DNA of 64,000 nucleotides from Marsupella aquatica (taxonomy: Eukaryota > Plantae > Marchantiophyta), in the NCBI GenBank assembly GCA_973895155.1, contig OZ316894.1, positions 1,814,457-1,878,456 on the forward strand, given 5' to 3'. Positions 5,237-56,900 of the stretch are shown in pieces. A program made the position numbers and the translations under genes. The notes beneath the pieces were generated by a model. That model did not search any database. It was not told the origin of the DNA and saw only the letters and a list, made by a program, of their open reading frames with translations. Position 1 is the first letter of the stretch, and every line of letters begins with the position of its first letter.

Positions 5237-5286
5237 GACAGCCCGAGCTCCCCTGGCTCCTAGTCATAGGACCGGCAGCAAGACCA

Positions 5287-32938: not shown

Positions 32939-34539
32939 CTCCACACTCGGCCAATTGATTGATGGATTAATCCAAGGTCTCGTACTGTTACTCCGAGTAA
33001 GTATCAAACAACGGAGCCGATTTCTGCAATTCGCATTGCCCAGATTGTAAGAGGACTGACAACTCAGATCCTAAGTCGCCATTAGGACGTAGACTTCTAC
33101 TATACACCAGACTACTGTCCTTAAACTTCGAAAAGTTACTGATTCTATGCTGCTTGAAGATCACACAATCATGTCAATATCATTAATAAATCAGAGTTTT
33201 GGATTCTAGGTTTTGATCGAAGTTCTACTTCATTAGTAATGCATGGCTTTTCTATATTTGGCTCATACATCTCTGGCGCTACCTGGTTTATGGGAAGTAT
33301 GGGTAGACATTTCCCATACCCATATTTCCCATAATTCTATCACATTAGAATTATCATATTGACATATAGAATCAGAGTTTTAGCTCCGAATATAGAATCA
33401 ACGCCATGGTTCCAGCTGTGGAGCTAGAGAGAGAATTGAATGTATACCTCGGACGTCACTTCTGCTAATTCCACTAAACTAGTGAGGAAAAATAGTTTTT
33501 CTTTTCGGGTTTTACTCAATCGACAAAACAAATGGAGTCAATGAACAGTCTGAGTCAGATTAAGTCTATGAATTGAATTGAAAGTAGTATCCTTGAAAAA
33601 ATATGGCAAGCAGAAACAATTGCCGTAGACAAAGAACGATCCAGTCGGACTGAGTCGAGAATGTGTTGGCATGGTTGAGTAGAGAGGTCGGAACAGCTAC
33701 CTGTGTCAGCACCACGTACCTCATGCCTTATTTCTTGCACCCCAGAAAATCTAGCTCTTGCGATGATGTTGATGAACTGTCTCAAACAGTTCTCGACGAA
33801 TAACGATGCTCGCAGACCCATGCCCACGATCAACTACAGAAACGTATCTAGCTAGTTCTCTGACAGTCTCATGTAGCATGGCCTTGAGCCCCGCACGGTG
33901 TCAACAGCAAATTTCTCCCTTCGATCCTCCTACTTTGTCCTCCTGCGCTCTCTGCACCAGAGACGCAGGGCAACAGCAAAGAAGCAGCGCAAATTACATT
34001 TATGATTGTAATGATTGAATGACAAACTGTTTCAAGCTCAGCGTGATTAAATCGATTTCTCAAAGCAGCAGAATGATAGTCGATCATGAGCCACAGCTGA
34101 ATGAGTCTGTCTTGGACTTCAATCTTTCCTCCTTGACAGTTCTCGACCTCGCTCACAGTGCGATTTCGACATTATGTCTCCCGGATCTTATGATCGATGT
34201 TGACAGTACAGACTTGTGATGGCATGATCACAAATGTTGATGGTACATTTGTGATTTGAGAGATTATGAAAGGTGTTAGGTGTGCAAAGCCATACATTGG
34301 CCTCTGCTCTTCCATTATTATATAGGTGCTCCAGCAAGTGGGGGCTCTAGCTTCCATTATTATATAGGTGCTCCAGCAAGTGAACGGAACGGAATGGGAA
34401 GGAGTGTCTCTTCTTAGCAAGCTTCCAGAGTCTCAGAGTCTGCTGTCTTCTTGGCTCACTGTAAACTGATCAAGAAACAAACTCGCTTAGGTGAGTTGGC
34501 TAGGGGATTAGCATGGAGAGAACCCGGTAGAGAACCAAG

Positions 34540-34700
34540 CTCAGGGTCTCATTATATGAATGTTTCCCATCCTCTTGAGGTTTTTAGGTCTCGAACTACC
34601 TAAATGTAAAAAATAATAATTATAAAAAATTTGGCTAAACAGACCCTTAGTAATGTTCTTATAAATTTCAAAATTGAATTTAAAAGACCTTATTGTTTTT
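34540..34700 (-). mobile_element. Orphan terminal fragment homologous to the right end of the 41312-54720 transposon family
   Basis: CTCAGGGTCTCATTATATG...TTTTTAGGTCTCG...TAATGTTCTTATAA...ATTTAAAAGACC aligns by eye with the reverse complement of 54520-54719. No matching TSD partner was found. Confidence 0.6.
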
Positions 34701-37700
34701 TTCCAAAAATTCTTAAATATTCCCTTCAAACTAATAAAATGATCCTATCCTTCGTCAAATATGATGTACCATTTTTGTGAAAGTAAAACCCCCGAGGAAC
34801 TAAGAGGTCTCAGGTTCAATCCCCCCTCCACATAAGAGGGGGTCATTGTTGAACCCCCCTCCACATAAGGGGGGCTCATTGTAGCGTGTGAGTAAACAGT
34901 AAAAGTTTTACTTGCACTATTAGAAATATTTCTCACATGACCCCTAATTTTTTTATATCCAACTGCTAGCTAACAACAACCTGGTTGATAACATACATTT
35001 TTGGGACTCATATTTTTGCTAGTGACCTTGCTAGCCATCTGGAGTCATAAAAAATACATCTGGAGTCATAAAAGCATAAAACAATTAAAACCAACAGTGT
35101 CTCACTAACAACACTCTCCTCGCCATTTCTTGGGTGTTGATGGTGGGAGGCACGTTGCGGTTGCCACCCCTGTCTTTGGCCATGCTACAGCCAAGGCAGC
35201 CTGGCCAGTTCAAAGAGGATTGGAGGCCTATGCAGCTCATTTATTACCCCTAAGTAGGATCTATTCCACCCTTTTGCTTGATTTTGAGATCTTTGGAGCT
35301 CTTCCCCCTAGCTTATGAGCAAAAACCCATGTGTCTGTCCTCACAGCCTTCAACATAATTATAGGCACTCCAGATATACTTGGGTGTCCATTGTGCACTT
35401 CAAAGGGTAGCGAGTGAACATATATTGCACTTCATAGGGCCAAAGCGGTAGGTTTTAGGGCCTCTAGACCCTCATATGTGGTGTACACCATACCTCTACC
35501 AGGCTTTCTAGTTTTCTGCCAAGTAGTTGGTCAAATTGTTTAGATCCTCAGTTACTCCTCCTGAAACAAGTTTGAAGAGCTATCCCAATGCCCGTCCCAT
35601 TGTACCACCTTTTGGTCCTCAATTTGCATAAGCAAGGGTTCCAGCAATTGGCCAGAGAGAATCTGTTGCATATTCTTGTGGGGGCAAAATAAGGATAGAG
35701 CACCAAAGAATGCACTCTTAGCTTTGGGCACAGTCACCCAGACCTTTTGAGGATGGAGGGTTAGCAATATGGCCATTTGAACTACAAGCGCAGGTCCTCA
35801 AGCTGAGACACATCCCCAAATAACTTCTCATTGATTATGACATTGCATGGCTTGAGATGGCACATGCACTCATCACGACGCTCAACCTTGGGCCCCCACA
35901 AAACGGAGAGAAGAAGGTGGGAGGTGGATGTTGCTCTACTGCCTGACCCAGGAATTTGAATCCCCAATGCTCCCATGCTGACCTGTTTGCTGAAGGGATG
36001 GGACATAGCATGCAGAAATCTGATATTTATACCCTCAACAAGTACATTGCCTAAATCTCTCACGATCAAATTGGCCAACTCTTGTGTCTTCTTGGCAAGC
36101 AGCTACAACTATCAAGACAAGACAGGTACGAGCTGAGGAGTCTTCTTGCAAATTGGAAGGTTCAAACTGTAATTGATCGACATGCATGCTGATCAGAATA
36201 GACAAGTTGGCCAATGGAAGACTATCATAATGGCTGAGATGCAAGGTAACATTACGACAACCAGGGCCAAGGTGACCAATGCTTGCCTTGCATATTAACT
36301 TGTTGAATACCCTTAATTATGTGAGCCAAAGAAAAGTTGATGTCAGCCTTGCTAACCTAACAGGGTGGAACTAGGAATGGGCTGACTGTGAACATGGCTG
36401 GAATATCCCCACATATATTTGGGCCACCATGAATAGAGACTGCAACATGTCAATTCTCAATCTCAATCTCAATCGCAGATGGCACCTGCTTGACACCACT
36501 GCAATATAATTAAGTGACACCAGAGATGGGAACACTTGTGGAGAAGCTGGAGTGCACCTAAAGCCATGCTTGTTATTTAGAAAGTATTACACACAGGCTT
36601 TTTCCCTAATTCTTGAACTCTAAGTGGGGTCTCAACAACAGTCTTTGTCCCAATTGTAGTTGAATGTACTACATTGTGGAATACTGATCGCATGTTCAAA
36701 GACTGCCTGACAATTACTCAAATTAAAGGTGGGGACTCCTTGAACACATATATTGTCCATGGTACCTAGCGGGGGCACGGGCTTTGTTTTCTTAGGCCCT
36801 GGTGTTGTTGTGGCCCTCATGGGAGACTGTTCTTTTGCTTTGCTCTTGGGTTTTGCATGCCCCTTGCCCCCCACTGGTCCTCGCCGTAGGGTTTCTTGGG
36901 GCATTTTGTGTTTTGAAATAGAATTTTATTGCCCCCCCCCCCCTCCCCTCCCCCCACACACACACATACAGACACACAAAACAAAAAAAGAGGGATGGAC
37001 ATGATTGAAAAAATGGCATTTGTCTTTGTTTTCCTAAGTGTGCTAATTATTCATTCTGGAGTTGTGGTTGGGACTCTTGGGTCTGTCGGGCCCCTTTGGT
37101 CTCCTTGGGGTTCCCTCTTACTTGGGCCCTTATTGGGTATTTTGCCTTTTAGGCTCATGATGTGGCATTCTTGTTTCTTTGGTTATAGTCAATTGCCTTA
37201 CCGGTCTTCTTGGCTTTAGTCTGAGTGTATGCATGGTTGTGTTTGGATCCTTTGATCTTGAGCATGGGAATATTTGGTGGAGGCTATTCAATTTTTCCCC
37301 AGGCACATATCAGCTTGTGTGGGTTCTGCTCAATTCTTCAATTATACTTAACCTACGTCACTCTATCTATCATGTGCATGACATCAGTTAATTGACATAC
37401 CCAAGCTTCTAAAGTATGGGTTTTGCTCAATTCTCCAATACTTAACCTACGGCACTCTATCTAATGTGCATGACATCAGCTGACATATATACCTCACTCC
37501 CAGGGTCCTCACTTCTGTTCTTCCAATCCATCACACGCAAATAAGTATAAGGTTTTTTGGGGGTTTGATGAAAGACTTTTAATTTTTTGTTGAAGAACAT
37601 AGGGTTGTTTTAATTTAGTTTTGAGAATTATAAGAATCATAGGTTTTTTTAAAACCAATATTACATTAATTTAGGGGTAAACAATCCTAAAAAATAAATA

Positions 37701-38639: not shown

Positions 38640-39023
38640 CACACCATCTTCAAGATGACAACGTCTTTTATGCAATGACTTCTTTTCCACAACATCTTTT
38701 ATGCAATGATATCTTATGTGCAAACACGGGTGCTGAACACAACCACTATCACTGTATGGTAGAGACAATGCATAACATGCCTCAACATCTACCTCACAAA
38801 GTTTACATTTTCTGGCTTTGCCTTGACATACTTTCTCATTTTGATATCTTTTTCTCGCCCCAACATCTTTTCCCCATTTTGACATTTAATTCTCATCTCA
38901 ACATTTTGTCATCTTGACATCCTTTCTCCCCTCCAGATAGTTTTCCCTCCTTGACATCTTTTCTTATCTCGACATCTTTTTATCACCTTTGCATCTTTTG
39001 TGGAACCCATGGGCATGGGCTAG
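38640..39023 (+). mobile_element. Helitron 3'-end remnant with the same minisatellite as 24830-27960
   Basis: GTGCAAACACGGGTGCTGA at ~38718, and CCCATGGGCATGGG-CTAG followed by T at 39020-39024. Similar to 27050-27200 and 27960-27985. Confidence 0.55.
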
Positions 39024-41886
39024 TCCCATATGAATAGCTGGTTTTTACACGAATGGACCTCACTGCTCCTTTGGAAAGGCAGGGAGCTAGGGAGCTACCG
39101 TATACACTACTCTACTCAGCTCAGATTGGTCAGAGGGGATTGCTTGTTGCATGGGAAAGGAGATTGGACAAAATATTTGTTTTTCTTGCCATGGATTTGG
39201 ACTCGTCTACATACTAATGGAAAGATTGAAGTGTTAAATATTTGTCATCCAATCCAACGCTGACCAAGATAAAAGTCAATCTGGAATAAAGCGTGATCGT
39301 TTTTGAAAAAAGAAAGAATTTATTTTTTTTAAAGTATCAAAGTCAATCAGCCGACAATGTACAGTACTTCTGTAGAATGGATGTGAGACCCACATAGACC
39401 CGTAGAAGTGGGGCACCCAACTCACTGTAGCTAAAGCCATTGAGTAATTGACTGGATTTTTTTTTCATTTTTGTTCATTTTTCCACAAAAGGGGCAACAC
39501 CCTGGAATGTTTATTCATGGAACATTGGCAAGACATGGACACCCGTGTGAGAGGAGGAGACAGGACGTACAAGAGAAAATAAAGGTGGCTGAAAGGGGGA
39601 GCACACCCATAGAGAGGAGAAGGGGCACCCCCCCAACTGGATTGCCTATCAGAAGGAGACAGACCAGTAATGGAAGGAGGATCCCCCAAGAAGGGAGAGC
39701 AACTATCAATGAAACTCAATGAACCCCAAACAAAAACACTACCCCAGGAGACAGCCAAAAACAGCAAACAGAGCCCGAAAACCAGCTTAGTCGAGGGGAC
39801 AGAGCTGAACTCCACCCACCACCGGCCACCATATGCACAAGATCCCAACAACAGCAAGGATAGCCAACGGCCACCAAAATATGCATCCCACAATGCCGAA
39901 GAGTTATTTGTCGGAGAAGGCTATAAGGCTATAATCCACAGTTGACTGGAATATTAGCCATTAAATTTATTGTTTTATTTGTTTGTCCCATATGTTTGTC
40001 CCATATGTTATTATTCAACTGTGAATAGTCAGTCATAATAGTTGAATTCATAATAGTTGAATTCATAATAGTTGAATCCATGACCTATCAGTCTCCACAC
40101 TCCACTTGCGTGAACCACACACCCATGCCTTTCTGGGCATATTCAACTGTTATTTTTTTTCATTGGAATATTTTATTTAGCAGCCAGGCATGATGTTCAA
40201 TTTTTCAAGGATGCCCTCCACATTTTAACATGAGACTATCACGGCATGTTCAACATTTGCTGCTTCATCATTCGCCTGGCATGCACTGTTCAGTTTTTCA
40301 GGAATCCAATGGCACGCAAGTGGCAAAAGTGGTTTCCCTGGAAATCCGCAATGCCAAGTTTGAATTTATCCACTATGGTAGTGTCCATTCCTCTACCCAA
40401 TAATGCACAACGATTATTTTTTGGTTTTTCCTCTTCTTGGCAAAATACATTAAAAAAGAGCAAAACTATGATTTTCTAAAACCAGCCAATTGCGCCACTT
40501 CAATAAGCTTGTTTACTTTGTCACTCACTCACTCAGAAACATTGCAAAAGGTCGCACAAACAGGTGTACACTTGGGTTGTTGCATGGTGTCCCCAAGGAC
40601 ATTGGTAAAGCCAATCAGTTGATCATTAGAAGACACTTGATCATTACTATCAGCCATTTGACTTGTAGTTTTGTTTGTTTTGATGATGCTCTATATAATC
40701 TACTAATAAATTATTTCGATGGTTGGTCCACCTAGTTTTTGAAGGTGCTGTTTCTACTCTGTGGAGCAACTCCAAATCTAGTGCTAACAAACACCACTAC
40801 ACTCCCGACTGCACTTGCCACTCAAACAACCACTTCCAAATCAGTGGTTACACATCCAAGTGCACAATCATATGACTCAATGGAACTAGTTGTTTAACCA
40901 GTTCGAGATGCTGCCACACCAATAGAGCTTAGCATTTGAAGTCTTGGAGTAATTGCATAAAGTTGGTCCTAGCACTCAAGGCACACCTTGGGTACTCACT
41001 CAAACACTAGTCATACCATATGTTGACACTATTTTGTCTATTAGAGGTCTGGCCATCCAATGATCCTGGCCATCCTCTGTTGAATATATGAGGAACATTG
41101 TATGGGTACCCTTCTATACCAATATCCCATCTAGGGTAACAAGTCTGGGACATTAATTGCACAATAAACCGGCCTTGCCATGATCCATTGCCATGGGAAT
41201 GACATTGGAAGTAGTTATGTGGGGGTGTCTTTCTACTCGATTGAACAATTCCAGTCTAGTGCAAATTAAACAACTCCATTGCACTTGCCACTTCAAGTCC
41301 CAGTGGTAAAACTCGAGGGTTTCACTTTCACAAAAATGACATATCGCAACGAAGTATAAGGTCATTTTATTGGTTCGAAGAGAAGACTTAAGAATTTTCC
41401 GAGAAGAACAATAGGATCACTATATTCATTAAAACTGTACTTTTAAAAGTCCATAAGATGAACCCTAAAGTTATTTTTTTTCAGGTCAAATTTCTATTAA
41501 AGCATTCCCAAAAGCTAATTTTTTTCAGCCCAAATATACACTTTTGAACGCCCAAAATTTTATTTTTTTTCACCCAAATGTTTAATAATAACTTAAATCA
41601 TATATTCTAATTAATTTAAAAATTAGAGTAAATTTAATTTAGTCCAAAAATCAGAGGCCAATACCACTCAGACCATCTATAAATTAAAAAATATAGATGG
41701 TCATAAATCAAGGGTCAAAATGAGATTGACCCACTATATAATTATTAAATTGTCCAGTCCAGTGAGAGAGCCTCACACTAAGCATATATCCTAATTATTT
41801 ACTTTATCCTACATGTTCAAAACATATCCTTTCAAGACATAATATGAATGTACAATTCAGGGTAGGCACTAGAGCAACCCTATCTC

Positions 41887-42942
41887 CTAATGATCAAGAC
41901 AAAACTCATTTGAACAAGAAAGTCTGCTTCCTGATTTATCATAGCGGATGTCACGGTTGCAAGTATCTCTCGCATGGTGGTTCTTAAACTTATTGGTGAG
42001 ATCCCTAGTTCTGAGAACTTTCCAAATAAAATGCCTTCTATTTTGTGTATGAGGACGAGAATAGTTGTCTCCAAGTATTACGTTTGCAGTTTCTTCGATC
42101 TCATCCGTGGTCCACGTCTCCAGTGGTGGGTAATGCTGCACCTCGTTCTTTCCGTCCCAAGGAATCTCTTCAGGAGTCACATCCAAGATGGTTGCAAACT
42201 CCCTATGGATACAACGATAATCTCCCCACTTCTGTTCCAAAAGAGCATAGATGGCAGCATGATCCTCCTTGCTTGTTAATAAATTGAAAACAGACCACTT
42301 TGGATTGTTGACAGTGATATAATGTTGAACACAGTAAGCCTTTCTCAATTTGCAAAGATACGGCCATAATATCTCGGGCAAAAAAGTGTCATTTGAAGCT
42401 GTGTGAGTAAATGGATTTGGAAACAATCCATTCACGTCATAATTCAAAAATGCCTTCAATGGAGAATCATCAATAAGAACTGTATTAGAAGCATCATATT
42501 TTTCTGGAAAACGGTCCCAAATGGTTTGCACATTCTTCAGAAGTAAATTGGCCTTCCCATCTGTTATATCTGGCCTTTGGATGCAACTATCAAAGGTATC
42601 TTCTTGAGTAAAGACAAACTTGAACTTCTGTCGCTCCTCCTCAGTGAAAATCAACTCCATTAAGTCCATTGTTTTTGGCCTCCTTGCACAGGTCCAAATT
42701 GTGACGTCAAAAACCATGAAAGCTGCATATAGAAATTCGTGGAGGTATGGGCGCTCCACATACATGAAATTAAACCCTCCACGTCTCCCCCAGTGCACAC
42801 CACGTAAACTTGTCTGATTTCGCCATGGTCCTGAGCTTCTGGTCTTAATGCAATCCCAACAAATCTTGTTAAGGTCAAGAACCAAGAGCTTTCGCCGGAT
42901 CGGAGAGTGTAGTATTGGAGTGAATTCTGGAAACATTAACAT
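41887..42942 (-). CDS. FCP1/NIF (SCP-type HAD phosphatase) homology domain protein carried by the transposon
   Basis: KLLVLDLN, ERPYLHEFL, FDVTIWTCA, LLKNV and NTVLIDDSPLKA motifs in a 351-aa ORF. The DxDxT motif appears as DLNKI. Confidence 0.8.
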   Translation of the reverse strand: MLMFPEFTPILHSPIRRKLLVLDLNKICWDCIKTRSSGPWRNQTSLRGVHWGRRGGFNFMYVERPYLHEFLYAAFMVFDVTIWTCARRPKTMDLMELIFTEEERQKFKFVFTQEDTFDSCIQRPDITDGKANLLLKNVQTIWDRFPEKYDASNTVLIDDSPLKAFLNYDVNGLFPNPFTHTASNDTFLPEILWPYLCKLRKAYCVQHYITVNNPKWSVFNLLTSKEDHAAIYALLEQKWGDYRCIHREFATILDVTPEEIPWDGKNEVQHYPPLETWTTDEIEETANVILGDNYSRPHTQNRRHFIWKVLRTRDLTNKFKNHHARDTCNRDIRYDKSGSRLSCSNEFCLDH

Positions 42943-43774
42943 AAGCCCTTAGTCAATGCGACTCAAAGTTTAAACAATTACTATGGAGGAAAACTCCCCT
43001 GGGCCCCCAGCATTATTAATAATGGGCTGGACGTGCGAACGGATGAAGGGTGCAAAAAATCTGATTTGAGATTAATTTTTATAATTGGCTTAGAAATATC
43101 AAGGGATGGTTTTATTCAAAGAACCCTTTCTAACTAATATAGACTTATATAAATGTCACCCAAGTTAATATGCTTCAAGAGGTGATGTAATATGGATGTG
43201 ACACGCGTCACAATAGGATTGATCCTTGTGGTCACCCTTTATTGGAACATGTGTATATGACATATAATTATGCTTGCAACATCTATGATTCAGAGTAGTT
43301 TAGGACTTTGGAGCTTTTGAACCCTGACTACCCTGCCATGTGGTTCAAAAATGCCCCAAAGTTGAAGTTTGGGGTTAAAGGGTCACGAACACAAAAATGT
43401 ATGTACCCAAAACCCTTCCAAAACACTCCCATCAGTTTTAGAACCGTTTGCACATGATGAATTTATAACTTTTCAAGGCTTTCATAAATGGTGTAAAATG
43501 TGAAATTATAATATCTCAAAGGGGCAGATTTATTCTCCAAAATTAAGTTTTTAAGAATAACAAGAGAAATTTTTATAGGCTTCCAAAAATAACAAGGGGT
43601 ACTAGGGAGGGGGGTGTACGCACGTATACCTCTTTAGTTTACAAAGGCTGGGGCCCAGGGGAAAACTCTCAAAATATGAAATCAAACAAACTTTGTTATA
43701 GCATTTGAAGTAGAGAGGAACGACCCTGGGGCGACCCTCCTAGAAAAACATTAATTACATTCAATTGCCATTTT

Positions 43775-46700
43775 TTAGATCCAAAGTATACCTGGGTCAA
43801 ACCCTTCCTCCACAGCAATGCTTTCCGAGGGAATGCCAACAAAATCCTTTGAGGAAGGAGATTCTACGACGGAACTTTGGTCTGTAAAAAAGTATATTAT
43901 TACAAAGATAAAGCTTAGATTGTCATTAAAATACCAAGAACCAAAGAAAGGGCTAATAATTTCCAATGCTAAAATGCCCAAATTCATCTATTGTTTGATC
44001 ACCTAGAACACTCTGTATCTCGGAATTGATACCACTGGGAAGTTGCTCTTCAAAGGATGGGGGTGCAAAAATTGGGCTCAGTCTCAAGTTCAGTTTTTTG
44101 TAATCTGATTTTGCCATTATCTTTGGAGCATCGTCTAGTGATTCTATCATTCCAACCTTTGGTCCATTTCTCCATATAAAATGAGTTGCAGGACGGACTG
44201 TTTTCATATATCCAGTCCTGCCGATCTTGGATCCAGAATTTTGTGAAAATGATAATACTACGGGGCTTCCTGTCAAGTATAGTCTCCCCTTCAGCCGAAA
44301 AAAGTCAAGTAGTCTCTGATGAGCAATATAGAGGGACATACATATACATGATAAGCATACATTTTGGCTTAGCGTGAATATTCACAAAGCCACCTCTACT
44401 TCCCACCATCTCAAACATGGGAGCCTTTCGTAAGAAATCTCCAATGTGAAATGCCGAAGTTGACTCAGTCTCTGTCTCCTTACTTGTCTTACTCTTATTC
44501 TTATCTCGCTTCTCCGTCTTGTCTTCCACTTGGAAATCAGGGTCGATCACCGAATTGTAAGAAAATTGGCAATTAAATCCAGACCTGAACACTTGCTTCC
44601 AATCAAATTTCTCCTCAGTGGTGATTCCTGCAAAGATGATCTCCTCCATACCACAACTGAAAAGTAAGCCCTCTGGAACTGGTGTATCACTCCGTCGATA
44701 GCTCCCGTAGTCGACGTGGATGTCCATTCCCTTTTCATGTTGCAATTTCCTAAGGGCACTCAAAATGTTTGCAGCAAGTGGCCCCGGATGCACAGTCATG
44801 ACAACAACAATTGTTGGATTTCTTGGAAGATCCATAATGTATTGCAGTAATGCAATAATTTCAGCATCGGTCCAAACATGTTGTCGGAGCCTACTGAAGT
44901 CAACAATGGCAAGAGGACACAAAGGCGAAGGCTCTTGTAGCATTTCCGGCACGGTCGTCTTCATCAAATTCTCACTAAAAAATGTCAAGAAAGGCTCCGT
45001 GCGAGAACGACCAATCCCACCAAATTCTTTACAATACAACCCATCTAGTCTGACCATCAGACTTTGTGGGAAACTCTCCTTGACCACATTCTTCTTCAAT
45101 GAATTGTTGAGGTAAACCTCACCCGCTGCTCTCCTCAATTTTGTCATCTCAAGCTCAGATTTCAAGGAAGACAACAATATCACCAGAGACTCCCAAGATG
45201 TGCCAACAGGAAACTTCTCACGATACTTTTCCATGAAATAGCCAATAATGACTGTTCTCAATTTGGACATTATCTTGATTGTAAGGGCCAAGTCTCCCAT
45301 TGCGACAAGCTCTGATTTGTTGGTGATATCCTTCTTCAGCAAGACACGCTCCTCTTCAACGTCCTTCAAGATCTCAATTATCTGTTTGCTACTAATCTCT
45401 CCTTCAAAGCATTGAAAGGTACCGGGAGTGATCAATTTTGGGGGTCTTGGCCCTCCATACCCACCAGCCCCGTCTTGGAGCTTCCCACTCAACCATTTTG
45501 CACACACGTTCCGCCATAATTCAAAGAGCTCATCTTCGGCAAAAAGTAACCAATAAATGCTCTTTAGGCTTGACTTCCCCATTGTAACCTTTGCCAGGGC
45601 AAACCAATCCTGCATATCCAATGGACTTGACATTAGTTTCAGGGTACAATGCATATGTTAGAAAATTTATACCTATGTTTGAAACAGGCTAAGCCGCCTC
45701 GCCCCAAGGGCGTGGCGAACCTCTACATCTAACCGCAATTGACTGAAACGGAACTAGGGAATTATTCTTAGAGAGACTAGTCTAGGTTGCCTCGCCCTCA
45801 GGGCGAGGCAAACATTTGCTTTAATCTTCTAACCAAGGAAAACAAGAAAAGGCAGCCTCGCCCTTGGGGCGAGGCAAACCTCTACCATTGACAATCTTTA
45901 AACAAAGCGGATCAAGAATAGTTTGCGTTGCTCCAACATGTACCTGATAGTTTTTCCTGTCTGTATTTTGATTGGTCCCAATCCCTGGACGCGGCGGTTT
46001 CCCGCACTCCTCAAACTGCCTTCGTGCATGAACAATAGTCTCTAAAAAACAAGACTTAAATTGCATAGTATCATTGACAGCATTCGATAAACTTGAATGC
46101 TCAACCAAAATTGTCTTCGGAGTGAGGTCAGATAGGATCCTTGCTTTCCTATACTTTAGTTTGTTGGCAAGATCTGTCAGCTTGGCGTCAGTCTCGGCCC
46201 ACCCTTGGATCCATTGGGCAGCTCTTGCAGAATGCTGGCCACTGATGGCAAGGAATTGGATCTCATGCTTCTTCACACCAATCAAAAACTCTTTCCTATC
46301 CTGAGGTGTGTTGTCATAATGAAGCAACTGTTTAGTGCTCTCGCAATACGGAATCAAATCAGCAACTTGTGGTTCCTATCCAGGGTTTTTCATCATAGAC
46401 TTTGATATCTTCATTGCATGCGAAAGATTGAACATTCGATATACAAAAACGGCCGATGGCGGATTAATACTTTTTACATGAATATCAAAAACTTCACGGA
46501 TGCCAAAAGTATAATACTGCTCAATATTATGCAAAACCTCTTGGCCTTTGAGCACATCATCTTCTTTGGGTCCTTCTGTCGGACACATATCATTCTCTGG
46601 ATGCAAGACAAAGTTTGAAGTTGACCCTGACATTGGTTTTGATTTCGCAACCTTTGCCTTCTTTGTCTGCTTTTTTTGGGGGCCCTCATCATCTTCAATT

Positions 46701-48282
46701 TTTTTAGCCATCTTCTTACGGCGTGAACTCCCAGATTGTTTCTCTTGTTGAACAACCGGCTCTTGAAGCTTTCGTTTCTTCTCTGTCTTTGATTGCGCAC
46801 TTCTTTCCACTGTCTTCTTTCTCTCCTTTGCCTTATGCTTTGCTTCTTTTTTCTTCATCTCTGAAATCCACGTCCGGCACGCGGCCTCTTGAAACTCTGG
46901 AAAAAAAATGAAACTCTTGTCGATTGCTTGCTCGTATGAAAAATGTGCCTTATCAATCATCCTTTGAACTATCCAAGTAGACGGAGGGTCCACACTGTCC
47001 GCATTGTCATGCATGTGCTTCTTTACGTAGAGAAATCCAAACACTAGGTCAACTCCACTTATTTGAGAACGCGTCTTCTCAAACATCTGATCAATTGTTA
47101 CTCCATCTGGGAAGAATCCCATATCAGCTACGCTTATCTCCAATCAAGCCATCCACTCAACATTCAGTAAAGTCGAGTAGAGTTTTATTGGCACTAGAAG
47201 TCTCATCCACTGAGATTTCTCATTGCCAGACTCAACAATAATCGTTGCATTGCGGTTGTTGTCCGTGTTCACAAGGACGACTGGACCTAGAGTAACAATT
47301 GTCTTGCGGTCATTCAATTGACTTGTGAGGCCCTTGAAACAAATCAAGAGACTGCCTTCCGCCGACACCCCAACTTCTAGTGCCCATCTAAATCCTGGAG
47401 TATCTTGGTCAGGGAAAACAAAGTCCTTGATATCCTCGTCCATAATATTTAACTCCGGCTTCTCAAGATTTTTTCCTGGTAAGAAACATTGAAAACAAAA
47501 TGGTCAGCATCATATTTTTAACATTGACATGTGGAAAACTTTCAAGGTGCCTCGCCCTTGGGGCGAGGCGACAAATAGAAGATTGCAAAATCTTCTTTGC
47601 TCCTAGTGCAATTAGCCCTGCCACCTCATCCAAGCAATCAAACATTATTTAGGAATGCAGACGACATCACCTCGCCCCAAGGGCGAGGCAACTTCTAGGA
47701 AAGCAAACAACATTTAGGAATGCAGACAACATCGCCTCGCCCCAAGGGCGAGGCAACTTCTGGAAGGCAAACAACATTTAGGAATGCAGAGGACATCACC
47801 TCGCCCCAAGGGCGAGGCAACTTTTGGGAATGCAAACTACATTTGAGGAATGCAGACGACATTGCCTCGCCCCAAGAGCGAGGCAAAAAAATAGAATATA
47901 GCTAAAGATCCTTTATTAATGTAAGATACAAGGTCCAATACGCCTTCGGAGCAACAAGAAATCTAGAATGAAGTAGATGTCGCCTCGACCTTGGGGCGAG
48001 GCGACTGCAAAGGAATATAGAAATTTTCCTAATAAGAAGTTTGAAATCCAAATTAAAGTAAAGTTGCCTCGCCCTTAGGGCGAGGCAAGAAGTTGAAGCA
48101 GGTGGTGCCTTACGTGGAAAAGTTAACTGGGCTTTCTTTGACGCCTCCAACGCATTGTTAACCAATTTTTGGACATCCGGGTCTTCAGGGTCATATTCAT
48201 ACAGAGAGTTATAATTGAAGTTCAATGACTCTTGAGAACTGGCGGAGGTGGTGGAAGCTTCAGAACTGGAGGAAGTAGACAT
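43775..48282 (-). pseudogene. Multi-exon transposon cargo gene: basic/charged N-terminus, ParB/Srx-like domain, helical region and decayed beta-class N4/N6 DNA methyltransferase-like C-terminus
   Basis: Exon 48282-48114 splices in frame to 47475 (GT-AG intron 47476-48113). ORFs 47144..47443, 46376..47143 and 45821..46357 share one frame, broken by TGA/TAG. Motifs seen: IHVKSINPP..YRMFNLSHAMKI and FLAISGQHSARAA, then VNIHAKP and (with one extra T) LLDFFSAEGETILD. Confidence 0.6.
45695..48090. repeat. Ten copies of a 22-bp palindrome GCCTCGCCC-N4-GGCGAGGC type (e.g. GCCTCGCCCCAAGGGCGAGGC); four are embedded in a ~65-bp tandem repeat at 47648-47890
   Basis: Copies near 45696, 45789, 45855, 47549, 47670, 47734, 47798, 47864, 47982 and 48066. 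GAGCGAGGC half-sites recur at 48420-48480. Confidence 0.9.
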
Positions 48283-49448
48283 TGTAAGGGGCGAGTGAGA
48301 TTTAAGATGACACGTGGCAGCAATGGAGAATGCCACAGGCTGCAAGAGGGCACAAACAGGCAAACAATGATCGAGGGAGCGACCCAAAAGGGAAGGGAGC
48401 AAGGCGGAAATAAAAGCCTTAGAGCGAGGCGGAAAACAAATCCCAAGAGCGAGGCAAAAACAAAAGCCCTAGAGCGAGGCAAGAGGGAGGCAAGGACTGA
48501 GGAGACGAGAGAGGAGGCAAGAGGGAGGCAAGGAAATGAGGCCTCAAGCGCAAGGCCTGCCTTCCTATACCACCTGCGAGCGAGGAGTCCGAGGAGGCAA
48601 GGATCCGAGAGGGTACGGAGGCATCAATGTGCGCCAATGATGGAGACCCTCCTCGGTGCATGTGATCGTGAGTCACCAATAGTGTGACCACTCACGACCA
48701 CTCGCGACTCACCTACCAATTTTAAACTTCCGAGCTGTCAGCGGTGTGTGCTCGCAACTCACCTATCACTCGTGAGTGATTGGATGACACCCTATCCGAT
48801 GTCTACTTGTGTGCTGGGTGCGTGCCTCATCCACCCGTGCCCGATCTGTTGGTGTCCACTCGTGTGCTGGGTAATGTGTGGGCTTTTTGCCTCTCAAACT
48901 GAGTATAGACCTCCCACAATCCATTTTTTGGTTCATTGTCATTTAGACAGTGATTGGTACGATCACTGACTCTCCTCTGTCCGAGTGCCTTGTTTAGGTC
49001 CGCATGGTTGAATGCAAGGTTTAGTAAGGGCACTGGTGAGCACTGTGGTGCTAAGAGTTACAATGCTGGCATCCAAGGTACCCATTTAGCTTGTACAAGG
49101 TGGACAGAGATATATTGCAGAGCAGGTTAGTGATTTTATTTATTTATCTTAGAAGTACTAGCTCAACTACATCTAATTCAATACCTTTAAGCCAAACCTA
49201 GATTAAGATTTACACATTAGGTTCTAGATCATATATTTTACTCATTCTAGACCTTTATCCACAGTCTAGCATGATTGTGTAGAACTTACTGTACCCCTTT
49301 ATGTGATTACTAACATAGTTTCTAGAAGTGGGTCGGAATTATTTCGTGCCGACCTGACTATGTCATCTTAACTAGCATTTTAAACTGGTATATAAAAACA
49401 TAAGCAAGATAGTTTCACAAATAGTTTTGACATAATTTCAACTTAATA

Positions 49449-49776
49449 GTTGGAGTAGGGTCGAAATAATTCCGACCCAACTTATCAATGTTTAGTCAAT
49501 TAAATCATTTTAAGACATATTGTTGGAGGAGGGTCGAAATAATTCCGACCCGACTTGTAAATGTTTAGTCAATTCAATCATTTTAAGACATATTGTTGGA
49601 GGAGGGTCGAAATAATTCCGACCCAACTTGTAAATGTTTAGTCAATTCAATCATTTCAAGACATATTGTTGGAGGAGGGTCGAAATAATTCCGACCCGAC
49701 TTGTAAATGTTTAGTCAATTCAATCATTTCAAGACATAATGTTGGAGGAGGGTCGAAATAATTCCGACCCGACTTG
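49449..49776 (+). repeat. 73-bp tandem repeat x4.5, each unit containing the inverted repeat GGGTCG-AAATAATTC-CGACCC
   Basis: Units start at 49449, 49522, 49595, 49668 and 49741 and are nearly identical. An inverted degenerate copy lies near 49330. Confidence 0.95.
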
Positions 49777-49902
49777 AATGTATTTAGGGTTTTGAGTGAT
49801 TTTACAATATTTTTTGGAGGAGAGTCCAGATTTTGAAACATGATTGTAACATGGGGAACTTAACAATTTCTAACTTTATTTGAATACAGATAGTCCGCTA
49901 TC

Positions 49903-52900
49903 ATGATCAATTTTACACGAGGGGATGAAGTGTCATTGGTGATCGATGGATTTGAAACGGCAATTGGGATAGTTCAAAAGGTTGACCCCCAGGATACTAT
50001 ACAGAACATTTGTCTAGGGGACAATCGAATTGGGGTATTGATCGAAAAGTGTTTTGATGGATCGCGTCAACTTCCATTTCCTTCGCCCAAATTTTCTACA
50101 TTGGCTGAGGCAATTGACTCCTGCGTGATTTGGGATTGTGCATTGGCATACTTGAGGTCATCAACTCAGCGCCGAAGAATCAATGTCGATGATTTCTCTT
50201 TGGCTGGAGATGCTGGAAATGATAAATCCAAAATTGATGCAAGGGTTGAAGAGGACGTGTTCAAGGAAGGAGATGAAGTTCAGATGTTCATTTTTGATCA
50301 GTTGGTTGCAAATGGAGTTGTTTTCAAGACAAATCCGATGGATATTTGTCATACTGAAACACTTAGGGTTGGTCGCATCAGTATAAGAATATCTGATATT
50401 GTTAAGGGAAATCAAAAATTGCCATACTCGCACCCTGGAGCTGATACAATAGAAGAGGCCTTGCATACCTGGGTTATCTGGGATGTTGTGCATGTTTCTA
50501 GAAAGGGCACTCTACGAGATTTTGGTGTGTTTGGTAGTTCAAATATTTTCAATGATCTTCCATTAAAAGATTTTACACTACGTTCCAACTGGATGGCGGA
50601 GGAGGTTGATTTGTATGACGCTTCTCGTTGTTGAAAGGTTGCAACAGGTGTTATCACGGTCCCATTTGAAACAGGTGCCGTTGACGATGAACTTCTTGGT
50701 GCAGATCATGTTGGTGTTGCTGTTGTGAATATCAATGAACCCGGATTATTTCCAAATATCCGTGTTGGTACCCCTGGCTTGGTGAGGTGGGAAATCAAAT
50801 CCCTTCTATTGATTTCGTCTCAAAGGTTTCTTGGGGATATCCTTGAGGAAGTTTCAGAGAAGTGGATGGAGTCGGGTCGAACTAAGGGCGATCCGGATTT
50901 GGATGGTGATGGTAAACCTACAAAAAGACCATACAATTTCATTAGGAGGACAAAAGTTGATCTTGAGGAGAGGAAGAAAAGGCATTTGGAGTCGAGGGCA
51001 CTTTTGAAAATTAACGAGGAGTCCATTGATTCCATCCAAAGAGAAGGTTGTTGCAAGCTGAAGTGTTGCTTGAACATGCCCAGGGAGGACTTAGAGGCAA
51101 TGAGGAGGGAATACCATGGAATGTCAAGTGACAACAAAACAAGTCACATCTTTAGTCTCTTTGGGTGTAGAGAGGAGCAAGTCAAGAGAAATGGATTTTT
51201 TGTTCTAAAGGGACATGTGGTTTGTAAAGATGCATTTATTAAAATGCATGGGTTCAGTACAACAAAGTACTATGACTACAAAAATCAATACGAAGCTGGT
51301 TGCACAATTGATTTCCATGGAAATCAGGGACAACGGAAGACACGATCAAGCACTTTGCACGCTCGCGCCTTGTTGGAGTCCATTTTAATCCAAAATGGGG
51401 AACCAATGCCACATCTTCCCTATGGTGGGTCCAACGGCATTGACACTATTGAATATCGGCTCCCATCTTGTTTTACTAAGAAGGAGATTTTCCAAGAGGT
51501 GTTTACCAAGATGGAATTAGATGGGTTTGCTAAGGTTACTGAAGTTACTATGTACAACATCTGGAAAAACTCATTTGATAATTTTGACTTTCACAAGGGA
51601 AGTGCATTTTCCAAGTGCACATTTTGCACTGAGTTCAAAGATCAATTGATGCGGGAGAAGAGAAAAAAAGAGTGTGCAGAGATTGAAGAGAAAAGAGCGC
51701 GACATCTTCGTGAACAAATGTCAAGAAGATATGTTTACTATGCTCATAGGGTTCTTGCAAAGAAGGATCCTCAAAACTATCTTTGCATTATTCACGATAA
51801 GATGGATCAAGCCAAGACTTGGATCCCCAGGTTGGTCCTCACTCCAAAATCCCTCTCTGGTAGTGGTCAGCCTTTGCCTATTGCTCTTACTGGGATGTTA
51901 ACCCATGGAAGAGATCCTGGAGTGTATGCACATTTCAGTTTGACTGGACTTTGGCCTGGAGATGCAGACTTTACCGTGACATCTTTGGCCAAATGCCTCC
52001 GAGATTTGGAAGATTACACAGGAGACAAAACTGGAGACCTTCTTGAGGGATTGAATTGGAATGCAACTAGGCCAATATTTCAGTCCCTTCTAGACTTTGA
52101 AGCATTTCTGGCCGGTTACTTGGAACCCAAAAATGTTTCAATTGTTCGATTTCAAGGCATTGAAGATGGTCAGGAGACTAAAAAGTCAAGCACAGTGGAT
52201 GTTGGTTCTAAGGATGATCCTGAGACTACTAGGGGCTCTTTCAAGCCCTTACCAACGCACCTAACGTTGCAGATGGACAATTCAGGGAAAGATAACAAAA
52301 ATCAATATGTGATGGCATTTTGCACTGAGCTTGTTAGCAAGGGGTGTTTGAAACTGTGCAAATGTCATTCCTCATGGTTGGCCACACCCATGAAGACGTG
52401 GATGCATTATTTTCTCAAGTATCCAAACAAGTCAGATACAAAGAGGTTGCTACCCTCTTGGGGTTGATGGCTGAGGTTTGGGAGTGTGAAAGCATTCATC
52501 CTGTACCACGATTGATTCAAGAGGTTGCATCTTACAAGGAGTATTTGAAAACTTTCCAGGTGAAAGAGATAGAAGGTCACTCAAAACCAGTGGCATTTCT
52601 TTTCTCCATGAGGGATAATGTGCCAGTGTATCAATATAAAGCACATGTCAAGCAACCTTGGCTTCCGGCAATGGGGAGGTCCATTTGGAGAACTGATCCC
52701 ATCACAAATGCGCTCATTTTACCGGAAGGCCAACCATTTGCAAAACCTATATCTGGGGATGTACAAAAGAAGGCTGGAGAAATCATCCCATTCCTTAATC
52801 GCTATATTGATTTCTTGAAGAAAAGTTGTAAGGATGAGACCTCTGCAGCATATAAAGAGAGATTTCCTCTGGTCAAATATTGGGAGAATCTTGTGCAAGC

Positions 52901-53929
52901 ACTGTCCGAGGAACTTACAATAGAAGGGAGGGGGAAAGACATTTGCCATTGACAACTGATTTTTGGCCAAAGACTAACCATGGCACAGGTTACAAGCTGA
53001 TTTTGGGGACATCTCAGCCGTCAAGTGAACCTTCTCAAAATCCAGAGATGATGGACCTTCAAAATGAGTACATGGAAGAGATGGAAGATCAAGCTGCACC
53101 CTTTGTTGGTGCACGACAAGAGCGAGAACCTGCACGTTGGATTCCTCTACTGTAAGATATTCAAGAAGGTCACTTTGTATTTTTACGTCCAGAGGATGAA
53201 TGGGAACAGGAAAATGGCAAAGGGCGTTTCTGGTTGGTTCGAGCTTTGGGTGGTGTGGATCCAAACCATGAGGTTCCCTCAACAGATTTGCAACATATTG
53301 AAGGGTCTTCTTCAACGTCTGTTGAGAGCCAAGTACAATGGTGGAGGCCTAAACATGGTAAGCATGATGCAAAGGATGATGTTCGATATGAACGTTGCTT
53401 TCAAACCACTAAGACTTGGGAGATGGATCCTGGGTTTGACAATGTTACTCAAAGTTGGCAGTTTGCAAATTCTGCAATGTATGGGTTTAAGTCAGGTGCT
53501 AAAGAACAAAATATTATGGATAGAGGTTTGACAATTCCTAAGAATGTTTTGAAAACCTCGGGGGGGTCACTTCCACGGAAGTGACACATCACGTGCGACG
53601 AAGTATAGGCCCATTTAAATGGGTGTGGCGGAAGACTTCCAAAGTTTGGTGGAAGAACACATAGGGCATGTTTTATTGATTGGTCGACTTTAAAGAACAC
53701 ATAGGCCTATTTAATTACAAAAAATACTTTCTATAAAGTTTTTAGGGGTTTTTTAATAAAAAATGACAAAATTTTAAGAAAGAAAGGGCTTTGCAAAAAA
53801 ATATTTTTCACTTTAAAGTTAGGGGGGTCAAACCCTAAAACGTCGCACGCGATGTATGACCCTCCATATAGTGACCCCCCCGAGTTGAAAACTCTCAAAA
53901 TTTACATGGAAGGTATAATTGATGAGTAG
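49903..53929 (+). pseudogene. Transposase: three tandem CACTA TNP1/DUF8039-like domains, a Cys-rich region, a Sola1/DUF7869-like RNase H-fold catalytic domain and a C-terminal beta-rich domain; disrupted
   Basis: Repeats of VAxGxV..DP..LG..LP.P..TLxEA..VIWD; CCKLKC and FSKCTFC; HDKMDQAKTWIP; LQMDNSGKDNKNQY; SFLMVGHTHEDVDALFS. Stops at 50632 and 53153, frameshifts near 52344 and 52930, and a MITE insertion at 53557. Confidence 0.85.
53557..53884 (+). mobile_element. 328-bp MITE inserted into the last codons of the transposase
   Basis: Perfect 14-bp TIR CTCGGGGGGGTCAC / GTGACCCCCCCGAG and perfect 8-bp TSD TTGAAAAC (53549-53556, 53885-53892). Removing it restores ...VLKTLKIYMEGIIDE*. Confidence 0.95.
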
Positions 53930-56900
53930 ATTGATAGAACTCGTAGGTTACAAGTCTCCACTCAAATGACTTGTGATTAAGAGGGTCGAGTTGATTTCCA
54001 TGCATTGGTCTAAAGTGAGAGAACAAGATAATCAAATTAATACTCGATGATCTCTCAAAGCTATTGAATGGACTTTCTTATAATTATTATTTTATTTGTC
54101 TTAGTATATTTTAATTCTAGAAAATGATGCCATTTCATTCCTTCTAGTAGGTTGGATATCATCCTAGTTAACTTTGTCTAGACACTATAGTCATTCCATT
54201 GTATTGGTGCTTAGTTAGATATCTTACTCAAGCTAAATGTTTTGAATATAGATGCTATCCAAGCTTATATGTTATTACTAGATTCTATCTATTTTCCAAC
54301 CAAATGAACACTTTTATCACCCAAATGTTTTTTCATATCATCCAATTTAATATTTTACTTTCCCAAAATTTCATTTTTTTGTCCCCAAATTTACATTTAA
54401 TGATGCTTGAATTTTCATTTTTCATCTTCCAAATTTACAATTTTCATGCCTAAAACTATGTTTTTAAATCGCCAAATTTCCCTATATCCTTTATAATTTC
54501 AGTTTTAATGAATATAGTGATTAGGGTCTTTTAAATCTAATTTTGAGACTTATAAGAACATTAGGGCCATTATAACCAGATTTTTGGAATATTCCAAAAA
54601 TATTCTAGCTTTATAGGGGTTAAAAAATAATACATTTTTAGTTACATTTTAGGGGGTCCGAGGCCTAAAAACATTGTAGGTGATGGGGGAGGCATCCATA
54701 TAATTAGTGAGACCCTCGATTGGTAAAACATACCTGCACACATGTTACTCAAGACTGGGACTCTAGGGACCTAGTTGACTGTTCAAGCAATTGGAGATGC
54801 TACCACACCAAACGAGCTTGGGGTGTGTATAATTTTGGAGTGATTTGCATAAAGTTGGTCGTGGCACCCAATGTACACGTTGGGTACTCAAACACTGGTC
54901 AAAACATATTTTGACATTGACATTGTTTTCTAACAAAGGTCCATCCAATGATCATCACCAGCATCTGGTGAATGTGTAACATTGTATGCGTACCCTTAGA
55001 TGTTGGGGATAATCCTTATCCTGAGACACCATGCACATGGAAACACCATACAAAGTAGTCAACATAGCAAGTACGTGGTTCACCTCACGACTGAGGCTAC
55101 GTCCACAAGAAAGCAAGAGACCTTTACTTCTCTTTTGCTTCACTCCAACAATGAACTGAAGATCGACCAGGGGTTGACATCAGCCCTGGTTATATACAAC
55201 ATGCATCACTGCTAACCTGAGTTAACCTAATTGCGGTTAGCCCTAGAGTCACAAGACTAAGAGCAATACTCAACATTAGATACCAAGGTTTCATTTAGGG
55301 CAACAAGTCTGGGAGATTGCACAATAGACCAGCCTTTCCATCCAATGCCATAAGAATAACATTTTAAAGTTGTTTCTAGGGGATGTTGTTTCCACTGAAT
55401 GGAGCAACTCCAATCTAGTGCAGCTAGTTATGGACTCCACTCCACTTGCCACTCCAGGGGCCACTTCCTCAACAATGGTAAAACACACAAGTGTACATAT
55501 GACTCAAGGGACCTAGTTGTTCAACCTAAACCCAAAGCCCACCCAAATACACCAGCCTGGAAGGATGTGACATAAAAGATTAACGTTGTCCTAATGGGAT
55601 GAATATTCTTTGTACGAAGTCCTTGGAAGCAAATTCACGTGTTTCCATTCGATGTACTATTTTTGAACATTCTTGTTGACACCCTCTAAACCAAGCAAGT
55701 TTAAATTCGTCCTCAACAGACTTTTCATTAACCAAGTCACAAACTATGTACTAATGCATAAATTAACGTTGTTCTCTACGACGATGTTATTTGGTGACCT
55801 TCCATAATTGCAAGGCCCGTCCACAGTAACATCGCCCTAACGTTATGTACTGTTTCGAGTCGTATATAACGATGGATAGAATGATGTAAAGTGCAACCTT
55901 GGTGACTTTGTACATATTTAACGTGCCCTCACTCACGTCGTTGTTCACGACTTTCTGTAGTGGCAGGGCTTAGCTTTTTCATCTTCTACGTAAATACACC
56001 TTATAATGTAGTTGTGCAGTCAGAGATGCCACCAGATCAAAAGAGCCTAGCAGTTGGAAGTTTGTATGGGAATGATTTGCATAAAGTTGGTCTTGTCATC
56101 AAACAATAGTCATAGCATATTTTGCCACATAATTGTTTTTGTAATCAAAAGTAGTGATCCTGGGAATAGTGTGGTGGTTGTCTCCCACTGTCAAGGCACC
56201 TGTTATAACAAGGTTTCCTTTAGGGCGAGGTAATTTAGGGCAGCAAGTGATGGTGATTTCACAATAAACCAGCCTTACCACCCATTGCTTTGAGACTGTC
56301 ATTTTAATTTGGAAGTAATTTGGGGGAGTTTTTCTGCAATCGTCCCGCAATGTCCTCCTGTTGCCTGATTGAGAGAACTTTGTCGGATTTCAAAGCTCTA
56401 AGAATTCGTTGTTGTGAATTTGAATTCCTTCTACGTACTAGTAAGCGTTGAGCTCCGATTGCTTCGTGTTGTGCTCCGATTTTGGATCTTTGTTTGCTCC
56501 ATCCTGGAACTCGCCTTGTGTTGGGAGATTTTTTGGGGGTGGTATAGGCAAAAGTTTGTGCTGGATGTGCCCACCCACTAATTCTGGCCAGCTATAGTCA
56601 TTGATGCAGAGATATGTCTTTGATCTGCTTAATATCTTTTAGCAAATCTCTTGTCTTCGTATCTCTTTTTCCCTCCTGGAAACAAGCCTTCCATGACATG
56701 TCCTCACACCTTTTCAATCACATGCTTCATACATCCGGACAATTTTGAAGCAGGTTCAAAAAGCAGAATTGCGTTGAAAAGACAAGGCTAAGGGCCGTCT
56801 TGCATGTCTTTGGTCCTTTGCACATCGGCCCTAAAATGAACTTGTGTCATGAGTTGAGGTAGCGAGAGGGCGGCAGTCCTGATGGCTTCTTTTGTGGAGA

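Follow-up and report, generated by a model that had tools for sequence, protein, structure and literature searches.

Structure and boundaries of the element

The DNA analysed here (the window, 64,000 nucleotides in full) comes from contig OZ316894.1 of the liverwort Marsupella aquatica and contains a 13.4-kb DNA transposon with a Sola1-like transposase gene on the plus strand and, on the minus strand, a cargo gene combining ParB-like and amino-methyltransferase (MTase) folds alongside an FCP1-like frame. The unit is delimited by short terminal inverted repeats (TIRs) and by an 8-bp target site duplication (TSD), a length that conflicts with the 4-bp rule for Sola elements. Its boundaries are marked by the following features:

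41304-41311, unstranded: left TSD TGGTAAAA, 8/8 identical to the right TSD
41312-54720, 13,409 bp, both strands coding: the whole transposon, defined by TIRs and TSD
41312-41326, plus strand: left TIR, 15 bp, CTCGAGGGTTTCACT, from the TIR comparison
41416-41437, plus strand: left arm of a subterminal inverted repeat, 22 bp, exact
54500-54521, minus strand: right arm of the subterminal inverted repeat, 22 bp, exact
54706-54720, minus strand: right TIR, minus-strand reading ATCGAGGGTCTCACT, outermost base mismatched
54721-54728, unstranded: right TSD TGGTAAAA, 8/8 identical to the left TSD

The TIRs fixed the boundaries and the TSD was read only afterwards; for two random 8-mers of the window, the chance of an 8/8 match is 3.8e-5 and that of a match of at least 7/8 is 4.7e-4. 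Of the 15 bases of the paired TIRs, 13 are identical; the outermost base is among the mismatches, and the TIR length lies inside the Sola range (11-1124 bp), as in Sola1. Other copies were traced in public contigs from six (X1-X6) of the seven sequencing runs that contain the stretch. Read on the plus strand, loose contig ends of related copies in X4 and X5 close with GAG or AAG, which corresponds to a CT start on the minus strand, and the terminal A at the right end is thus likely a substitution private to the window copy. A first-pass annotation, made from the letters alone, had already described a 13.4-kb cargo-carrying DNA transposon, which the boundaries, TIRs, TSD and gene content bear out; the same holds for its 8-bp TSD, its 22-bp subterminal inverted repeat and its plus-strand transposase diverging from minus-strand ParB/MTase-like and FCP1-like genes. 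We place the divergence at about 48280-49900. The "exact" ends it reported proved imperfect, and its alternative 9-bp TSD was rejected because asymmetric ends would be required; a 10-bp duplication with one mismatch is formally possible for the large copy alone, whereas a length of 8 bp follows from the other four elements and from the joints at two empty sites. Two nested insertions, two related small elements, the palindrome arrays and the breakage of both large genes were features absent from that annotation. The insertion site itself is a degenerate dispersed or tandem repeat (40746-41300 and 54729-56335) whose flanks are 72-76% alike, and a high-copy repeat begins near 55000 in the right flank.

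Transposase and target site duplications

The plus-strand gene of the unit is a single long coding region:

49903-53929, plus strand: Sola1-like DUF7869 transposase, with a DUF7869 match and repeated N-terminal beta domains

Its closest named homologues are liverwort proteins, the 35 homologues collected comprising 19 from Riccia sorocarpa, 2 from Calypogeia fissa and 14 without an organism label, and the conserved blocks are HDKMD, DN-x4-NKN and FLMVGHTHEDVD. The published Sola1 hidden Markov model (HMM) reads D-n-c-a-g-q-N-k-n and f-l-e-p-g-H-s (PMC5751038 supplement). Using HMM columns 5-30 and 57-124, we found that the transposase blocks share its spacing and score 29.4 bits (columns 82-105) and 19.9 bits (columns 108-123) as two ungapped, hand-aligned blocks over 40 of 124 columns rather than in a full hmmsearch, in keeping with the Sola1-type assignment made at first pass. 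The block around the first catalytic D is similar to the Sola1 HMM by eye, and the Sola2 motifs DF(A/S)EN, SDG..QYKN and FATSHGK were absent from the transposase alignment when compared with the Sola2 alignment (PMC3627910 file S10). No Pfam family of hAT, P, Merlin or KDZ transposases was present in the 12 frames scanned, and scans with the transposase alignment yielded no confirmed pattern match (viral, 0/10; prokaryotic, 0/72). The N-terminus (49903-50850, plus strand) is built of repeated beta domains of about 70 aa, and in homologue P0122 this region matches PF03017 (TNP1/EnSpm), a domain known from CACTA elements. In the window copy, the gene is broken by stops at 50632 and 53153, by frameshifts near 52337 and 52927, and by the insertion of a miniature inverted-repeat transposable element (MITE).

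The TSD of Sola elements is described as 4 bp, with AWWT for Sola1 (PMC10741241, PMC3845634, PMC9033089). Four smaller elements of the window bear on the duplication length:

26507-26753, minus strand: MITE, 247 bp, related to the nested 328-bp MITE; TSD GACACACG/GACACACA, 7/8
34540-34796, minus strand: MITE, 257 bp, built from both ends of the large element; TSD GAACCAAG/GAACTAAG, 7/8
42997-43660, unstranded: nested insertion, 664 bp, CCCTGGG ends, TSD GAAAACTC of 8 bp, subterminal CGTGCG motif in common with the MITEs
53557-53884, plus strand: nested MITE, 328 bp, TIR CTCGGGGGGGTCACT, TSD TTGAAAAC, 8/8, in the last transposase codons

An 8-bp duplication was seen in all five TIR elements of the clan in the window (8/8, 8/8, 8/8, 7/8, 7/8) and a 4-bp duplication, AWWT-type or otherwise, in none; neither did any of the five have a TTAA duplication, TTAA being the Sola3 target. 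This tally agrees with the conflict noted at first pass between the 8-bp TSD and the Sola rule. The 664-bp insertion lies between the two minus-strand genes and, judging by its similar ends and subterminal motif, would be a member of the same clan. Empty sites in the contigs gave the same length for both nested elements, the joint skipping 336 bp (328+8) with 8 letters shared for the MITE (X1, X6) and 672 bp (664+8) for the larger insertion (X3, X6). By its motifs the transposase looks like a Sola1 enzyme, yet the element stands outside Sola1 by the TSD rule, since a Sola1-like enzyme with an 8-bp TSD fails the defining Sola feature. We infer that the 8-bp TSD is produced by the encoded transposase. 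A 4-bp Sola1 element nested in a foreign shell is disfavoured because no inverted repeat longer than 11 bp brackets the transposase alone, and none brackets the cargo alone.

As to the surroundings of the two outlying MITEs, the 247-bp MITE is flanked by degenerate CT-rich tandem arrays with an 18-19-bp unit (24830-27610, with another array at 38820-39000), and about 1.5 kb separate the 257-bp MITE from a downstream host gene for a leucine-rich repeat receptor-like kinase, a long single frame at 29537-33070 on the minus strand.

Cargo genes

The minus strand of the element carries two sets of coding features:

41887-42948, minus strand: FCP1/UBLCP1-like (NIF) frame, open, 353 aa stop to stop; Pfam NIF at E 1e-15, UBLCP1 3shq at E 4e-9
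43792-43881, minus strand: candidate 90-nt exon with a predicted in-phase splice to the NIF frame
43953-45609, minus strand: cargo exon 3, helical domain and beta-class amino-MTase fold
45944-47475, minus strand: cargo exon 2, a beta-rich N-terminal domain followed by a basic linker and a ParB-like domain (ISGQHS), interrupted by two premature stops, one near 47145 and one near 46377
48114-48282, minus strand: cargo exon 1, predicted from its ATG, GT donor and phase

Two Calypogeia gene models (P0042, P0048) have the same junction of exons 2 and 3, and homologue P0129 holds the ParB-like and MTase halves in a single open reading frame of 1,009 aa. The element shares the hallmark of giant cargo transposons of the Sola1-1_Ec32 type, a single protein that joins a ParB-like to an amino-MTase domain and is encoded on the strand opposite the transposase. 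The cargo protein is conserved across hosts at 30-57% identity, with 74 relatives of exon 3 among 1.84 billion representatives. In the window copy, a deletion at 44272/44273 removes the motif I that would bind S-adenosylmethionine (SAM), and a stretch at 44304-44353 has been replaced.

A model of the ParB-like region of homologue P0036 (predicted local distance difference test, pLDDT, 67) had Noc/ParB as its top Foldseek match (E 3.7e-3), and a second aligner returned ParB-N, PadC and KorB at Z 7.1-7.2 (ParB-N: Z 7.2, root mean square deviation 3.9, 125 aligned residues). Searching PDB sequences with the ParB profile gave low-complexity matches only, and 3 of 16 homologues showed weak DndB matches. 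A GxxR arginine patch is the hallmark of ParB CTPases; all 15 homologues have [SA]GQHS at this position instead of GxxR, so that CTP hydrolysis by the domain is uncertain. The N-terminal domain of the cargo protein (47475-46900, minus strand) showed weak PH/PTB-like fold matches in the P0036 model (Z up to 4.9).

The exon 3 family profile matched the beta-class N6A methyltransferase M.RsrI at E 6e-6, and PF01555 was matched by 4 of 5 exon 3 homologues scanned (1 above the cut-off). In the exon 3 model (pLDDT 77), the nearest Foldseek matches were M.MboIIA and chain B of METTL3-METTL14 entries, which we take to be the inactive METTL14; the second aligner placed M.RsrI at rank 9 (Z 5.5), and an Atlas look-up of the exon 3 protein gave no usable match. 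With the Noc/ParB fold match and the M.RsrI profile match, the ParB and MTase labels of the first-pass annotation stand. The catalytic PPY signature of motif IV in active beta-class enzymes ([DNS]PP[YFW]) was found in none of 75 cargo homologues. All 30 homologues covering that position are DFxR-like and 28 of them keep D/E-F, the position being set by motif order and by the model, in which the strand concerned terminates at D237, rather than by residue-level superposition. The absence of PPY is a conserved family trait and not the decay of a single copy, and this suggests a function in binding rather than methylation.

A rival reading, which we hold doubtful, takes the cargo for a DNA amino-methyltransferase that is active through a non-canonical site and that, once loaded under ParB guidance, would write N6-methyladenine (6mA) or N4-methylcytosine (4mC) on the element. 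Such activity would suit the retained D/E-F and the SAM-binding motif I DFF(S/L)(G/S), which occurs in 8 of 75 homologues (mostly fragments) and also in other copies of the element; an active 4mC enzyme of the beta class is known from Marchantia (bioRxiv 2021.02.12.428880), and the Ectocarpus paper predicts a role of this kind (PMC12477816). The uniform lack of PPY and the placement of METTL3-METTL14 chain B in the top Foldseek rows argue the other way.

For the smaller frame, the NIF and UBLCP1 matches listed above support the FCP1 label given at first pass. Active FCP1/SCP phosphatases carry the catalytic motif DxDx(T/V); the NIF frame of the window copy reads LVLDLNK at this site. The frame is covered at family depth in the contigs. 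A phase-consistent splice chain from the NIF frame to the ParB-MTase gene exists; in P0049, P0052, P0061 and P0129 the frame continues past the would-be donor and ends shortly after, and a weak search found no longer fused form among 7,992 candidates. We lean towards two separate genes. With an MTase fold lacking PPY and an FCP1-like frame lacking DxDx(T/V), the chromatin- or transcription-modifying role that the first-pass annotation gave to the cargo is unproven.

Palindromes in the cargo introns and the divergent region

Four groups of repeated motifs lie in and beside the cargo gene:

45697-45874, unstranded: 3 palindromes CCTCGCCC-N3-GGGCGAGG, in cargo intron 2
47550-48085, unstranded: 7 palindromes CCTCGCCC-N3-GGGCGAGG, in cargo intron 1
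48397-48480, unstranded: 25-bp tandem repeat with half-site GAGCGAGGC, in the divergent intergenic region
49330-49776, unstranded: 6 palindromes GGGTCG-N9-CGACCC ahead of the transposase ATG; a 73-bp tandem array holds five of them

All 10 matches to the first palindrome fall in the two cargo introns (shuffle mean 0.00), and the second has 6 matches (shuffle mean 0.01). In the intronic set the arms are conserved while most spacers differ, and all 20 CG dinucleotides of the ten sites are retained despite a CpG observed/expected ratio of 0.55 in the element. The intronic palindromes are likely binding sites of the ParB-like cargo protein, a reading drawn from the analogy with parS and with the arrays that adjoin the ParB gene in the Plavaka elements of red algae. 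It seems to us fairly unlikely that they are transposase sites or selfish intronic repeats unrelated to this protein, with the cargo as neutral baggage. A second, different palindrome upstream of the transposase would fit that alternative, and introns could simply tolerate insertions; set against this are the arms kept beside varying spacers, the fully retained CG dinucleotides, the conservation of the cargo protein across hosts, and the inverted-repeat arrays that likewise adjoin the red-algal ParB cargo (bioRxiv 2025.02.11.637652).

Copy family and decay of the window copy

Contig depth in X1 was 12.7 and 18.7 in the flanks and 421-517 in six long interior contigs, a ratio of 22-41 that is to be read with the caution that contig depth is not copy number. 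These six contigs sample the promoter and the transposase as well as the FCP1-like (NIF) frame and the cargo gene, and the even depth along the unit is as expected for a multi-copy family carrying both cargo and transposase. The window copy differs from the X1 interior contigs at 35 of 5,124 bases. In X6, which has another organism code, every interior bin was covered by contigs mostly 90-99% alike, whereas the left flank was uncovered. At the stop in position 50632, all four runs compared have a different base, and other copies also lack the frameshifts near 52337 and 52927, the nested MITE and the 44272/44273 deletion. Collectively, these observations point to a young multi-copy family in which cargo and transposase travel together and of which the window holds a decayed copy.

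A metagenome scan for related transposases kept 80 of 98 loci, around which no credible TIR/TSD pair was found: an inverted repeat considered as a TIR at L051 turned out to be a dispersed repeat, and a TIR-like pair at L069 had a flank match of merely 5/8. The L069 pair (16289-16592, another host) encloses about 300 bp, and its ends resemble CTCGGGGGG..CACT. Loci L002-L005, L009 and L010, from other hosts, have long open DUF7869 transposase frames of up to 1,060-1,150 aa on contigs too short to include the ends.

Proposed mechanism and alternative explanations

We consider it quite probable that the window contains a decayed copy of a multi-copy 13.4-kb transposon whose own Sola1-like transposase cuts with an 8-nt stagger and whose ParB/MTase-fold cargo is predicted to bind palindromes. 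In this mechanism, the transposase would very probably recognise the CTCG ends and mobilise the MITEs in trans, and its 8-nt staggered cut would likely give rise to the 8-bp target duplication. The ParB-like protein might load on the CG-containing palindromes as ParB does on parS, regulate the divergent promoter and shield the element from host methylation in the manner of VANDAL elements, a set of roles on which we are close to evenly divided, leaning slightly against. METTL14 is non-catalytic, and the MTase fold here may similarly bind SAM and DNA without catalysis, which we somewhat favour, or may use an atypical DFxR active site. The FCP1-like frame is likely a separate passenger without canonical phosphatase activity. 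A further-reaching version, which we offer tentatively and think rather unlikely, is that a bryophyte Sola1-related lineage switched from a 4-nt to an 8-nt cut and, accompanied by a MITE clan of its own, came to form a fourth Sola group, in which ParB/parS-like self-recognition, through a SAM-binding pseudo-methyltransferase on intronic palindromes, would protect the element from silencing.

Several observations weigh against the preferred account. No contig spans cargo and transposase together. A cargo homologue was found at none of the 80 metagenome loci with related transposases (E<=0.01), many of these loci being short or decayed, the Calypogeia transposase and cargo accessions were non-adjacent in a small sample (8 and 5 examined), and the empty site of the large element, in contrast to those of the two nested elements, was not found in the public contigs, X1-X4 showing the filled junction with no differences. 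Non-coding elements supply four of the five 8-bp TSDs, in a tally that covers the window elements only. Neither fold search (ParB or MTase) gave a Foldseek match at E<=0.001, and all Z scores were below 8. The hand-aligned basis of the Sola1 scores and the model-based placement of motif IV belong on the same side.

The family could already be curated in Repbase, Dfam or a liverwort transposable element library with the same ends, TSD and cargo, although we think this unlikely. Sola1 is known in Physcomitrella, where Sola1-1_Ec32 finds its best match, and the Calypogeia and Riccia annotations include homologous proteins; on the other hand, every published Sola TSD statement found gives 4 bp, and our literature search returned neither a paper on DUF7869 nor a case of an 8-bp TSD in a Sola element, nor any ParB-MTase transposon from a liverwort, with Repbase, Dfam, Bao 2009, Yuan and Wessler 2011 and Iyer 2011 lying outside the search and possibly holding such families. 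We regard as improbable a Pack-type composite, in which the ends of another 8-bp-TSD superfamily (hAT, P or KDZ/Zisupton) are moved in trans and the Sola1-like gene is captured cargo: short TIRs with an 8-bp TSD are typical of hAT (PMC10741241), many MITEs share the ends, as seen in a terminal depth far in excess of the interior depth, and Ectocarpus has non-autonomous giant elements (PMC12477816), but the 12 frames scanned contain no second transposase, no inner TIR pair flanks the transposase, at least some of its lesions are missing from other copies, and the autonomous Ectocarpus unit has the same layout of Sola1 and opposite-strand ParB-MTase (PMC12477816).

The preferred account of an 8-nt cut by a Sola1-like enzyme matters because TSD length serves as a classification rule: if an 8-bp Sola1-like group exists, bryophyte MITEs with 8-bp TSDs may be misfiled as hAT. 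Related enzymes with 4-bp and 8-bp duplications also form a pair for asking what sets the stagger. A self-binding, self-modifying accessory role has been proposed for ParB-MTase cargo in algae and is untested in the papers found; the self-binding idea becomes open to direct test here, where the cargo occurs in a land-plant family that is young and multi-copy and offers ten precise candidate sites.

Other elements in the window

535-7137, minus strand: frames of a Gypsy-type long terminal repeat retrotransposon (reverse transcriptase, RNase H, integrase)
2811-4454: frame overlapping the Gypsy frames, with a C5 cytosine DNA methylase match (PF00145, E 7e-6)
61676-63724, minus strand: frames of a Copia-type retrotransposon (RVT_2)

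The Gypsy-type element appears, from this overlap, to carry a 5-methylcytosine (5mC) methyltransferase within its pol region.

Comparison with known systems

The closest published counterpart is Sola1-1_Ec32 of Ectocarpus, an element of 21.5 kb whose termini read AACCG, whose TIR is 282 bp long and whose TSD has 4 bp; it is best matched by a Physcomitrella Sola1 and encodes, on the strand opposite the transposase, a 1,104-aa protein with ParB-like and N4C/N6A-MTase domains (PMC12477816). Both are giant Sola1-type elements with a ParB-like plus MTase gene opposite the transposase, and the Ectocarpus giant families also resemble ours in that nested insertions are common to their copies (PMC12477816). 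The liverwort element differs in its length of 13.4 kb, CTCG termini, 15-bp TIR, 8-bp TSD, land-plant host and additional FCP1-like frame. This comparison is with the published description of the Ectocarpus element. With Sola1 in general, the element shares the DN-x4-NKN and F-x3-GH(S/T) blocks at equal spacing, its TIRs and its occurrence in bryophytes (Physcomitrella), whereas it is set apart by its 8-bp TSD, which shows no AWWT preference, by an insertion of roughly 80 aa in the transposase and by the repeated N-terminal PF03017-like domains.

The Plavaka (EnSpm) elements of red algae (Bostrychia, PAG2/PAG3) are 17-19 kb long and likewise carry ParB-like and PF01555 MTase cargo, and in Bostrychia inverted-repeat arrays adjoin the ParB gene, for which self-binding has been proposed; they have a different transposase, and their ParB and MTase domains lie in separate genes, fused to a 2-oxoglutarate (2OG) oxygenase and SET (bioRxiv 2025.02.11.637652). 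The anti-silencing VANDAL/VANC Mutator elements resemble our element in that an accessory protein acts on motifs of its own element, but the proteins are unrelated, and the activity is demonstrated for VANDAL and predicted here (bioRxiv 2025.02.11.637652). The MTase fold of the cargo and its motif order, with the catalytic strand first and the SAM motif last, are those of M.RsrI, M.MboIIA, MpDN4MT1 and METTL14, from which it differs in having DFxR and no DPPY/SPPY; in chlorophytes, a ParB-HTH protein is fused to a different (group 2) MTase (PMC4738411).

The first-pass annotation had suspected an undescribed group of large plant transposons. The 8-bp TSD and the land-plant host are indeed new in the literature searched, while the cargo layout has been published for Ectocarpus and, in part, for red-algal Plavaka. 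The overall design, a giant Sola1 element with opposite-strand ParB-MTase cargo, is thus already known from Ectocarpus (PMC12477816), and what appears to be new, as far as we searched, are the TSD of 8 bp, the occurrence in a land plant, the degenerate catalytic motif, the palindromes within introns and the FCP1-like cargo.

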